A stretch of 64,000 nt of DNA from Klebsiella phage Sealy, in sequence record PQ337358.1; one strand, 5' to 3'. Position 1 is the first letter of the stretch, and each line of letters begins with the position of its first letter. The position numbers and the translations under genes were made by a program. Below, in pieces: positions 48,109 through 58,506 of this stretch. Below the pieces are notes generated by a model. The model saw nothing but the letters and a program-made list of their open reading frames with translations, searched no databases and was not told the origin of the DNA.

Positions 48109-51100
48109 TTACCTTATATGAATGTACCCGTTAGCCAGGTCTATTTTCATTGTGTACGTACCTTCCGGGTTAGAACTCAGTGCGGCAGCCCTATTATATA
48201 GGATGTCAACACCAATTTGCGCCAGGAACGCGTTGTTTGCAATAATCTTATCCGCAGTGATAGAGCCGGAAACGATCATATCACCGTGAACAGTTAGTGC
48301 AGGAGCTGTCCATGCTGAGCCATTCCATTGGCGAGTCCAGGAGTTCTGGGGGGAACCTGACTTATACTGAGTCAGTACATCATACTTAACTGGCGGTCCA
48401 GCGAAGGTTGACTGGAAGAACGATGCTGCTTGAGTGTCATTCCACGCAGTCAGGTTTGATATCGGCTGGGTGTAGAACCCCGGCCCACGATCCCCTACAG
48501 CGTCATACTGGTTACGGACATATGACGTTACAAAGGCTCCCTTTTCAATCTTACACCTTCCAACAACGTTATTCCCGCCGGATTCGTTAACAGAGAATCT
48601 AACAGATATCCTATCTGAATTAGCCGGTGTAGTGAAGGTAAAGCTGCTCAAACCTGCAGTAGTAGACGCAATAGTCTTCAGCACCCCTCCAGTGCTGTTA
48701 CTTCCCTTAGCGTACCAGAATACATGACAACGAACTTCCACAGCGTTATCAGTCTCGAAAGACATCGTATATGTGGTGCTTGGAGGAAGGTAGGTGAACA
48801 TGGAGGCGGACCCATCTGATGGGAGGGTATACGCATCGGTAACTCCTGTACCTGCAATTATCCTAGCCCGTAATAACTCATAGTTCTTACCTATAGAGGA
48901 ACCGTTTCCTGCAACCCCAGTAATTGAGTCTAACCAGGCCTTAAAGTAGAATAGGTTCTCGTTAATACTATCCCCGTCTAGGCGAATAGGATCTGACCAA
49001 TTACCCATAATAGCATTAGTTTCCCCGTTAAACTCGGCCTTAACCATCCATAGAGGGCTACCTGGAGGGGGGCTATCTGACCATCCAGCCGGATTACTAC
49101 CAGAAGGCCTACTAGGAGTGCTCGCCATTACGGCGAACTTCATACTCACATAGTTGCCTTTAGAACCTGGAGTACCATTAGCCCCGTTCTCACCTACTGC
49201 TCTGATCGCAGGACCCCAGGATCCATTCACCTGCTGACGCATGTACAGATCACCTGAAGTGAACGTACTGTGCCAGTTAGTAGACCCATCCTTAGACCAT
49301 TGAACGTTTACAGAGTTACCTGCTGGCCCTTGCGGACCAGTAGCACCAGTGTCCCCTTTGTTACCTTGAGGACCTGTATCACCCTTGTTACCTTGAGGAC
49401 CTGTGGCACCAGTATTACCTTGTGGACCTTGTGGACCAGTAGCACCATCCATAGACAGATCTTCAATCGCTATAGCCGCAATGTATGCAATGCCGAAAGG
49501 CGTTGCGCTACCACCCATCTGGATAAACGGTCTAGCCTCGACAGTCGGCTTACCATCAGAACGGTCCCCTACGGTAATTACCCTGCTTTCCAAACGCCAT
49601 CCAGTAGCGTCTTTAGCTGGGGCTGCGGTGGCTGCTGGCCATCCAGTATTATCCTTATCTGCGCTTCGACAGTGTAGACCGAGGTTAAGAGCATACTCCC
49701 CTTCTGAGTTATTAACCCAGGCGGTTATACGGTATTTCATCCCTTTCTTAGTAGGGAACCAGTTGTTGCCTTCGTAGGTATCACGTGAGTTCACAGAAAA
49801 CGCTTTCTTGTGCCCTCCCGGATCTCCTCCGGTAACATCAACTATAGGTTTGCCCCAACTATTTGACGATCCGTTGTCAAAAGAGCCTGTCATAACCCTG
49901 TCGTATCCAATCCCCGGGATACTCTTCTTAAGGGTATAGCGCTTGACTAAGGTACCGTACTTAGGATGACTAGCCTGGTAGTTAACCCAACCAGATACTA
50001 CGTCTATACCGTCAGGCATACCGCTAGGAGTGTAGTAACCAGAAGAGTTGATGTTTCCGTTCAAGTTCTCTTTCTGGTCAACACCCCCGACAACCTCTAC
50101 TCCGAAGGTACACTGGCTAGTAACATCAACTGTTCCGTAAAACACTTTGAAGTAGCCATTAGTGCCATTCCAATTCTGAATAAACCCGTAAGGGTTACAC
50201 AGAATAGAAGCAGATTCGTTAGTCAAATACCCTACTAGAGAGTTCACACCATCCTGTAGTCTAACGATTGTGATAGTATCAGTCATTCCATCACAGGTTG
50301 CGGCTACTGTAACGTAGTCCGAGCTGCCAAACTGGGCGGAGGTAATAGTCTTATTAGTGGCTGTGCCACCTAAAGATATGTTAGCTCCTGCCTGGTTCTT
50401 GGCTGTCCAGGTTATCGCAGCACTAGTATTCTGTCTCCAACTATCAATCTTAATAGTACCGTTAGACTTCAGGTTACCATTAGTATCAAAGCTAAAGGAC
50501 AGACTATCGGACGTTAATGCGAAGGCTTTGGCATTAGTACCACTTGGACCTTGTGGACCTTGTGGACCAGTAGCACCCGTGGCTCCTGTATCACCCTTAT
50601 TACCCTGTGGACCCTGTGGACCTTGAGAACCATCAGCACCAATAGTGTCCAATTCATTCCTGATGAACGCTGTAGCGAAATCCCCCTCTTCCAGCTTGAT
50701 ATTGGAGATAACGTTGGTACTACCAGGGACATTCAGAGAAACACGAACAGAAATTCTATCGCATCCCTCAGGAATAGTAAATGACCAGCTAGTTCTACCT
50801 GCAGAGTTTGATGCTACCCATGAGAACACATTAGATCCACTAGCCCCTACCGGGATAAAGAACACGTGCATTCTCATTTCCAGGGCGCTATCCGTGTCAA
50901 ATGACATAGTGTAACGCTTACCAGCAGTGACTTTAGTAAAGGCCGTTCCACCTCCACTGTACGGGCCAGTATAAGAATCCCCTACACCAGCTCCTGAATT
51001 GATACGTAAACGCAGTTCATCAGGATTCTTAGTAATGGTGGATCCACTTCCGCTCGCACCTGTCAGTGAGTTGATCCATGCCTTACTTGCGAATAGGTTG

Positions 51101-58506: not shown

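Follow-up and report, generated by a model that had tools for sequence, protein, structure and literature searches.

The 3465-residue pb4 straight fibre of Klebsiella phage Sealy: a genus-typical Sugarlandvirus protein with a predicted collagen-linked module array inside linker 2 of T5 pb4

Introduction

In phage T5 the central fibre contains pb4, a protein of 688 amino acids (aa). Its spike is a 24-strand triple beta-prism with two small decoration domains between strands 15 and 16; linker 2 spans residues 548-566 and decoration domain 2 residues 567-618, and infection is triggered by a twist that is relayed from pb5 via the rigid spike (PMC10038345). Here we analysed the pb4 gene of Klebsiella phage Sealy within a stretch of 64,000 nucleotides (nt) from sequence record PQ337358.1, which we call the window. 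The gene encodes 3465 aa, and we describe how its product compares with T5 pb4 and with the pb4 proteins of related phages.

Large pb4 proteins are known from the genus Sugarlandvirus (Demerecviridae), whose members are T5-like siphoviruses. The same protein was named 'RBP beta' in 2023 and described with a galactose-binding-like/carbohydrate-binding module (CBM) domain and collagen repeats, and it was proposed that its length allows the phage to cross the capsule with no need for a depolymerase; the host range of the genus was found to be broad and capsule-dependent (PMC10714931). In 2026, Sugarlandvirus Pb4 orthologues of 3446-3454 aa were compared with the 688 aa of T5. AlphaFold 3 (AF3) and HHpred gave a trimer in which collagen triple helices link lectin-like and immunoglobulin (Ig)-like domains and the C-terminal prism holds pb5 (PMC13611949). 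The protein of Lyra, Lyris and Mirion (PMC13611949) and of K7PH164C4, K30lambda2.2 and K32PH164C1 (PMC10714931), 3446-3463 aa long, is the same as the one in Sealy. The differences are allelic only and lie mainly in the CBM subdomains, and the window also has a longer allele of the lateral fibre.

Collagen-like fibres are also known from the PRD1 P5 spike and from fibre proteins of E. coli prophages. Gly-X-Y rods or CBM beads occur in the trimeric fibres of a streptococcal prophage hyaluronidase (PDB 6x3m), of Klebsiella phage Kp7 gp52 (7xyc) and of the phi812 CBM-cenC baseplate protein (9euf). None of these proteins is a pb4, and the number of alternating collagen/CBM units in Sealy pb4 is at the upper end.

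The reading frame and its counterpart in T5

The gene is a single minus-strand open reading frame (ORF) with zero internal stops.

48109..58506, minus strand: whole pb4 gene (central straight fibre), 3465 codons and a stop, identified by the Pfam PB4 domains, T5 pb4 in PDB and phrog_3890

An earlier note, made from the sequence without database searches, had described an uninterrupted 10.4-kb frame of 3465 aa and had placed it as the pb4 orthologue at the pb4 position. We confirmed both. The chance of 3465 sense codons in a row is (61/64)^3465, about 1e-72, when uniform codons are assumed. The gene sits between the pb3 hub gene and the collar and lateral fibre genes, as in a T5-type pb4. The Pfam families Fn3-I, Fn3-II and Fn3-III_PB4 score 123, 126 and 198 bits, all over the 27-bit cut-off, and PB4_spike scores 501 bits in 3 stretches. 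In a phmmer search against PDB sequences, T5 pb4 (7zlv_i, 688 aa) was matched at E 1.5e-291.

The T5 match falls into two blocks. The first aligns residues 1-563 of the Sealy protein with T5 1-561 (782 bits) and the second aligns residues 3336-3465 with T5 559-688 (200 bits). In this alignment, T5 548-566 is a (GXY)6 tract with the sequence S-GTE-GVD-GRP-GAT-GQR-GPG. From the two-block alignment and the published domain limits (PMC10038345), the array is therefore one insertion of ~2770 residues, placed exactly inside the (GXY)6 linker 2 and between the two decoration domains. It opens with ...QWSGVPGTGGTDGSNG and closes with ...GDRGPGFY. The exact insertion point in T5 pb4 is new here, beyond the published accounts that we found.

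Outside the array, the fibronectin type III (FNIII) domains, the spike, decoration domains 1 and 2 and the C-terminal strands are colinear with pb4 of T5 (7ZLV/7ZN2/7ZQB, 688 aa) and DT57C (8HRE, 685 aa) and are strongly conserved. The gene position matches that in T5, and Sugarlandvirus phages probably keep the pb5 partner as well. The pb5 gene is not in the 64-kb window; Boggle_ER46, which is 98% identical, encodes a 658-aa full-length homologue of T5 pb5 (E 2e-143). What sets the Sealy protein apart from T5 pb4 are the ~2770 extra residues within a linker that has 19 residues in T5. T5 pb4 is without CBM domains and has only the (GXY)6 linker. In Sealy the spike is presumably split into a proximal and a distal part.

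Modules and collagen-like tracts

We located the Gly-X-Y tracts and motifs by a regular-expression scan of the protein. The module limits were set by segment-against-segment BLAST and profile searches (hmmsearch). The array has the order A'-col-A1-col-B1-col-A2-A3-col-B2-col-A4-col-B3-col-A5, where col is a collagen-like tract. The five A modules have ~270 aa each and the three B modules ~360 aa each. By these limits the pb4 core covers aa 1-545 and the partial A' aa 543-625; in the feature list, the start of A' is drawn where the T5 equivalent of decoration domain 1 ends.

57508..58479, minus strand: three N-terminal FNIII-like domains, aa 10-96, 103-194 and 209-333 (Pfam Fn3-I/II/III_PB4, E 6e-36, 8e-37 and 5e-59)
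57058..57459, minus strand: proximal beta-helical spike, aa 350-483, equal to T5 spike strands 1-15 (Pfam PB4_spike profile positions 1-212; T5 pb4 alignment; limits from PMC10038345)
56866..57057, minus strand: equivalent of T5 linker 1 and decoration domain 1, aa 484-547, with the motif PPAGWSAFPP (alignment to T5 pb4 484-547; weak match of the a2 profile at aa 480-514)
56632..56865, minus strand: A', aa 548-625, a short GXY tract and an extra a2-type small domain, where the insertion starts (blastp, hmmsearch)
56560..56631, minus strand: collagen tract 1, aa 626-649, 8 triplets
55747..56559, minus strand: A1, aa 650-920, with a1 (VQWSKDG..NWH), a2 (PxGWSDAPP..PLWM) and a predicted CBM-type jelly roll
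55657..55746, minus strand: collagen tract 2, aa 921-950, 10 triplets
54589..55656, minus strand: B1, aa 951-1306, with a putative Ig-like N-terminal part of ~200 aa (CDGxxDxITIVRL motif) and a predicted CBM22-like C-terminal domain
54445..54588, minus strand: collagen tract 3, aa 1307-1354, 16 triplets
53644..54444, minus strand: A2, aa 1355-1621
52810..53625, minus strand: A3, aa 1628-1899, directly after A2 with no collagen between
52648..52809, minus strand: collagen tract 4, aa 1900-1953, 18 triplets, the best Pfam Collagen stretch
51580..52647, minus strand: B2, aa 1954-2309
51445..51579, minus strand: collagen tract 5, aa 2310-2354, 15 triplets
50641..51444, minus strand: A4, aa 2355-2622
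50533..50640, minus strand: collagen tract 6, aa 2623-2658, 12 triplets
49447..50532, minus strand: B3, aa 2659-3020
49312..49446, minus strand: collagen tract 7, aa 3021-3065, 15 triplets
48496..49311, minus strand: A5, aa 3066-3337
48112..48495, minus strand: pb4 C-terminus, aa 3338-3465 (alignment to T5 pb4 559-688, 200 bits; limits from PMC10038345; 100% identical to K7PH164C4)

The C-terminus covers what in T5 pb4 is the last part of linker 2, followed by decoration domain 2, linker 3 and the distal strands of the spike; these strands lead to pb5 in T5.

Seven of the Gly-X-Y tracts are long (8-18 triplets each, 282 residues summed) and four are short, with 5 triplets each (aa 551-565, 690-704, 1668-1682 and 3105-3119). 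Pfam Collagen (PF01391) scores 115 bits against a cut-off of 27.2 bits. The earlier note had counted eight tracts of 20-50 residues. All five example positions that it gave are right, and only the count has to be replaced by seven long and four short ones. Its five A-type modules with both motifs were found again: VQWSK occurs five times, as does PxxWxDxPPxGxPLWM, which has a degenerate sixth copy at aa 588-603. The three B modules also stand, with three copies of CDGxxDxITxVRLxDG, but the terminal DIHxxxLxMDG that the note had assigned to all of them is present in two, and the third B copy has the variant IAIEDLSMDG.

The A copies are 37-58% identical to one another and the B copies 40-46% (segment BLAST). 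This is a divergence of 42-63%, somewhat above the 30-50% estimated in the note. As DNA, the repeat copies are 60-80% identical, and exact repeats are short. With copies well diverged in protein and DNA, we agree with the note that the array arose by old in-frame duplication and is not an artefact of assembly. Among the paralogous A copies, a1 and a2 together have a mean identity of 63% and the CBM part 37%. A' is 48-49% identical to the a2 parts of A1, A3 and A5 (blastp) and matches positions 32-114 of the A profile (hmmsearch).

The a2 subdomain of every A module has the signature Y..F...P..P...P.GWS..PP, as in the T5-type decoration domain 1. This resemblance is at the motif level only and is statistically weak (9.7 bits). 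The a1 (VQWS..WH..MRQ) and a2 (P.GWSD.PP..PLWM) segments are independent repeat units used outside pb4, since the metagenomic proteins P0003 and P0154 contain alternating a2-a1-a2-a1 arrays.

CBM-type domains

Every A and B module appears to end in a CBM-type beta-sandwich. A profile built from the C-terminal halves of the three B copies matches CBM22-2 of Paenibacillus Xyn10C (PDB 4xup) at E 3e-7. We also modelled A1-col-B1 (657 aa) with AlphaFold 2 (AF2), at a mean predicted local distance difference test score (pLDDT) of 56. In a Foldseek search with this model 4xup heads the list, which we used only as support for the sequence-based CBM22 match. The matches in BFVD include CBM-cenC tail proteins. 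The modules were assigned to the CBM4/9/22-type beta-jelly-roll fold. The lectin-like modules with collagen-like spacers that the note had suggested are thus retained, as CBM-type folds alternate with Gly-X-Y tracts. The search for homologous proteins for the structure alignments gave 3 matches for A1, none for B1 and 9 for the A-module profile, and these alignments are shallow.

The N-terminal half of the B module (~200 aa) is a common bead. At E <= 1e-3 it is present in 1457 cluster representatives, often in giant fibre-like proteins, and a protein of this kind (1000-6475 aa) can have as many as 15 copies. Collagen tracts are also present in 37 of the 153 such proteins inspected. Four were scanned for further domains; of these, P0016 is a pb4, and P0013 combines phage-tail with endosialidase-chaperone domains.

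Pfam detected no catalytic family (beta-helix lyase, hydrolase or other glycanase), either in the whole protein or in the modules. All residues are assigned to the pb4 core, the A and B modules, the collagen tracts or the pb4 C-terminus, and no depolymerase has been reported in Sugarlandvirus (PMC10714931, PMC8006926). The term 'depolymerase-like', used in the note, finds no support in these results.

A known protein of the genus

Over 19 kb, the window shares 98% nucleotide identity with the Klebsiella phages vB_KpnS_Boggle_ER46 and Shiner (Sugarlandvirus, Demerecviridae), and dozens more phages are 80-95% identical to it (megablast). Boggle_ER46 has an annotated 'straight fiber tail protein' of 3467 aa, Shiner a 'central straight tail fiber protein' of 3465 aa and K7PH164C4 a 'tail fiber protein' of 3463 aa. 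The module order in these three is the same as in Sealy. B modules occur in 63 Klebsiella-phage records, mostly in three copies. In PHROGs v4, pb4 is represented by phrog_3890 ('straight fibre tail protein'), whose profile of 3453 positions is matched by the N-terminal core (1-542), B1 (942-1300), A1 (3054-3324) and the C-terminus (3326-3453).

Sealy pb4 is therefore a known, genus-typical and catalogued Sugarlandvirus protein. The earlier note had considered an undescribed tail architecture and had named equally long annotated pb4 genes in homologous phages as the finding that would speak against it. Such genes exist at 3463-3467 aa, so the claim of novelty fails; the annotations, phrog_3890 and both published descriptions (PMC13611949, PMC10714931) precede it.

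Other T5-like Demerecviridae have A- and B-type modules at the same pb4 site in proteins of intermediate length, with 1690 aa in Serratia phage Slocum, 1681 aa in Serratia phage Kamaji and 1435 aa in Pectobacterium phage My1. Their modules are fewer, stand in another order and are 41-47% identical to those of the window, and long collagen tracts are almost absent.

Loss of modules and divergence between phages

The full module set is A1 B1 A2 A3 B2 A4 B3 A5. Natural and lab-evolved phages have in-frame pb4 variants of 3052, 2795, 2498, 2446, 2161, 1751 and 1037 aa in which whole modules are missing, and all variant boundaries fall in collagen tracts. Five of these are:

Kpn9-P3: pb4 of 3052 aa, without B3
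GlastoCabaret: pb4 of 2795 aa, without B2 and A5
phiKp_27: pb4 of 2498 aa, without A4, B3 and A5
SEL21: pb4 of 1751 aa, with A1 B1 A5
FZ41: pb4 of 1037 aa, with A5 only

A5, the sole module remaining in FZ41, is the most conserved module across Sugarlandvirus.

Among the lab-evolved derivatives of K7PH164C4 (PLoS Biology 2025 deposits), 6 of 27 have two B copies, with in-frame pb4 deletions of 3051 or 3906 nt by which three or four modules are lost. K7_rec11, rec13 and rec26 have a common in-frame deletion of 3051 nt that removes A2 A3 B2, and K7_rec9 has a separate, larger in-frame deletion of 3906 nt (A2 A3 B2 A4). In both types the junctions lie in CAAGGTCCACAAGGTCC-type repeats, CAAGGTCC[A/T]CAAGGTCC, which encode GPQGPQ. 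The K7PH164C4 homologue of collagen tract 3 is the 5' junction of the lab deletions, and the deleted region is homologous to positions 50533-54588 of the window. The pb4 deletions are not mentioned in the PLoS Biology source paper of the K7_rec phages.

We then compared the subdomains of Sealy pb4 with those of K7PH164C4. The N-terminal core, the a1+a2 and other scaffold subdomains and the C-terminus are 80-100% identical, most of them at least 93%. The CBM subdomains are 35-88% identical (A1 35%, A3 62%, B3 68%, B1 and B2 76-77%), except for that of A5 with 97%. A divergence focused on the CBM subdomains is the pattern that would be expected of specificity determinants. The module-loss series and this concentration of divergence in the CBM subdomains are new here.

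Proposed architecture and alternative explanations

The most reasonable reading of the collagen spacers and CBM-fold modules is a long, flexible, multivalent central fibre, as in the earlier note. We consider it likely that this is a capsule-spanning, multivalent glycan-binding fibre with pb5 at its tip and with collagen tracts that serve as recombination joints. Three pb4 chains would form a homotrimer in which the seven Gly-X-Y tracts, judged by their sequence and by the published AF3 trimers (PMC13611949), fold into collagen triple-helical rods of ~81 nm summed. Globular nodes between the rods would hold 8 CBM-type domains per chain and 24 per fibre. The whole fibre may then measure ~110-150 nm; the complete central fibre of T5 has 31 nm. 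The spike would have to be split because a parallel collagen triple helix cannot loop back to its origin. By this topology the proximal piece (strands 1-15) would stay on the baseplate and the distal piece (decoration domain 2 and strands 16-24) would carry the receptor-binding pb5 at the far end. Such a fibre could span the thick Klebsiella capsule, so that pb5 finds its outer-membrane receptor without a depolymerase, while the diverged CBM domains may bind capsule or O-polysaccharides in a reversible and multivalent manner. This would account for the broad, capsule-dependent host range of the genus. The GPQGPQ-type collagen-coding tracts may act as in-frame joints at which modules are lost or exchanged by recombination.

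Several points weigh against this proposal. Pfam CBM_4_9 scores 19.3 bits for B1 and 16.5 bits for A3 (E 0.011), below the cut-off of 25.9, and the other modules gave no match to it when searched singly. The B N-terminal half is only loosely Ig-like, an assignment taken from weak data and the published AF3 description, and it is weak because our AF2 model has low confidence. How a T5-type twist would cross a segmented fibre of more than 100 nm lacks an explanation. The deletion variants are deposited assemblies, unconfirmed by reads. FZ41 with one module and SEL21 with three were deposited as viable phages, and fibre length is therefore dispensable for some hosts. Our searches of the accessible literature gave no direct experimental evidence for the proposal, as they found neither electron micrographs that measure the central fibre nor proteomics of virions, glycan-binding assays or a cryo-electron microscopy structure of a Sugarlandvirus.

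The array could instead be a passive ruler that holds pb5 far from the baseplate, with CBM-fold beads that bind no sugar. In favour of this, besides the Pfam scores under the threshold, CBM-like jelly rolls are common as structural beads in phage fibres, the B N-terminal bead is repeated up to 15 times in giant fibre-like proteins, and a protein receptor recognised via pb5 was inferred in PMC13611949. We regard a mere spacer as unlikely, as the divergence between phages is focused on the CBM subdomains on mostly conserved scaffolds and infection is capsule-dependent (PMC10714931). The insertion lies exactly in the loop between decoration domains 1 and 2, which hangs beside the T5 spike between strands 15 and 16. 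The spike could thus be intact as in T5, with pb5 ~30 nm from the baseplate and the array hanging sideways as oversized whiskers. In that arrangement the chain must return to strand 16, and parallel homotrimeric collagen offers no return path. Seven canonical tracts, each with 8-18 triplets, speak for triple helices, and in the AF3 models the extended fibre ends with the C-terminal prism and pb5 (PMC13611949). We find lateral decoration rather improbable, somewhat more so than the passive ruler.

An enzymatic fibre that degrades the capsule is much less probable still. Halos have been reported for some Sugarlandvirus isolates (bioRxiv 10.64898/2026.05.12.724579; PMC8006926) and CBMs usually accompany glycoside hydrolases. 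However, several isolates are halo-free, three groups found no depolymerase, and we detected no catalytic family in a protein whose residues all lie in non-catalytic modules. Repeat-rich genes are prone to mis-assembly, and an ORF of this kind might be several genes; the FZ41 and Kamaji records use later starts, and vB_Kpn_3 has a 434-aa fragment (P0002). Assembly collapse or expansion is nevertheless implausible because the DNA copies are so diverged and the exact repeats so short. An ORF of 3463-3467 aa recurs in genomes from different laboratories and countries and runs for 3465 codons without a stop, which leaves practically no room for an artefact of assembly or annotation. On this evidence we rejected the artefact, depolymerase and lateral-whisker explanations.

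If the capsule-spanning fibre with a split spike is correct, the T5 twist trigger cannot work unchanged and another signal must open the tail. We tentatively suggest, with somewhat less than even confidence, that the split spike needs a non-twist signal such as tension or fibre collapse, and that the GPQGPQ joints shed or swap CBM modules within tens of passages and so adapt the length of the fibre and its range of glycans to the capsule of the host. The ability of Sugarlandvirus phages to infect many capsule types while lacking a depolymerase makes them candidates for Klebsiella therapy, and the giant pb4 is the leading suspect for this breadth. The exact module map should help in the design of experiments and of engineered host ranges. 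For engineering it is useful that the CBM subdomains are variable, that modules are removable in frame at the collagen joints and that the array lies in the linker of the T5 decoration loop.

Neighbouring genes and minor observations

The gene order around pb4 is pb9-pb3-pb4-p132-ltf, in which the pb9-type gene encodes a distal tail protein, and the tape measure gene is also nearby. The ATG of pb4 abuts the TAA of the pb3-like gene upstream, and the downstream gene begins 3 nt past the TAA of pb4.

58507..61353, minus strand: baseplate hub, pb3-like, 948 aa, upstream neighbour (Pfam Phage-tail_3; annotated in Shiner and Boggle as baseplate hub or central tail fiber J)
47686..48105, minus strand: collar protein, p132/LtfC-like, 139 aa, downstream neighbour (Pfam LtfC, E 8e-18; annotation of relatives)
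45158..47686, minus strand: lateral tail fibre of 842 aa whose C-terminal part is an intramolecular chaperone, Peptidase_S74 (Pfam, E 7e-16; annotation of relatives)

The lateral fibre has 842 aa in the window, Boggle, Shiner and SEL21, ~680 aa in K7PH164C4, FZ41 and GlastoCabaret, and is far shorter in Kpn9-P3. These differences in length are due to allelic exchange of the distal part. Relatives have an annotated 96-nt ORF of 31 codons in the gap that separates the tape measure gene from the pb9-like gene (61965-62078).

The window has 20 tRNA genes clustered at 486-7391 on the minus strand, and such clusters are typical of T5-like phages. Both tRNA-Gly and tRNA-Pro are absent from this set of 20, despite the Gly/Pro-rich gene of 3465 codons.

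The records PP355766.1 (vB_Kpn_AM_K4, 288,685 bp) and PP355768.1 (vB_Kpn_AM_K6, 261,044 bp) have pb4 modules split into small coding sequences named 'hypothetical protein', and their size suggests that they are concatenated or mixed assemblies. NCBI lists a 114-aa fragment (P0157) from a contig of 502 bp as an Exophiala dermatitidis hypothetical protein. The fragment contains a collagen tract, is 74% identical to part of the A module and is probably a phage contamination of the fungal assembly.

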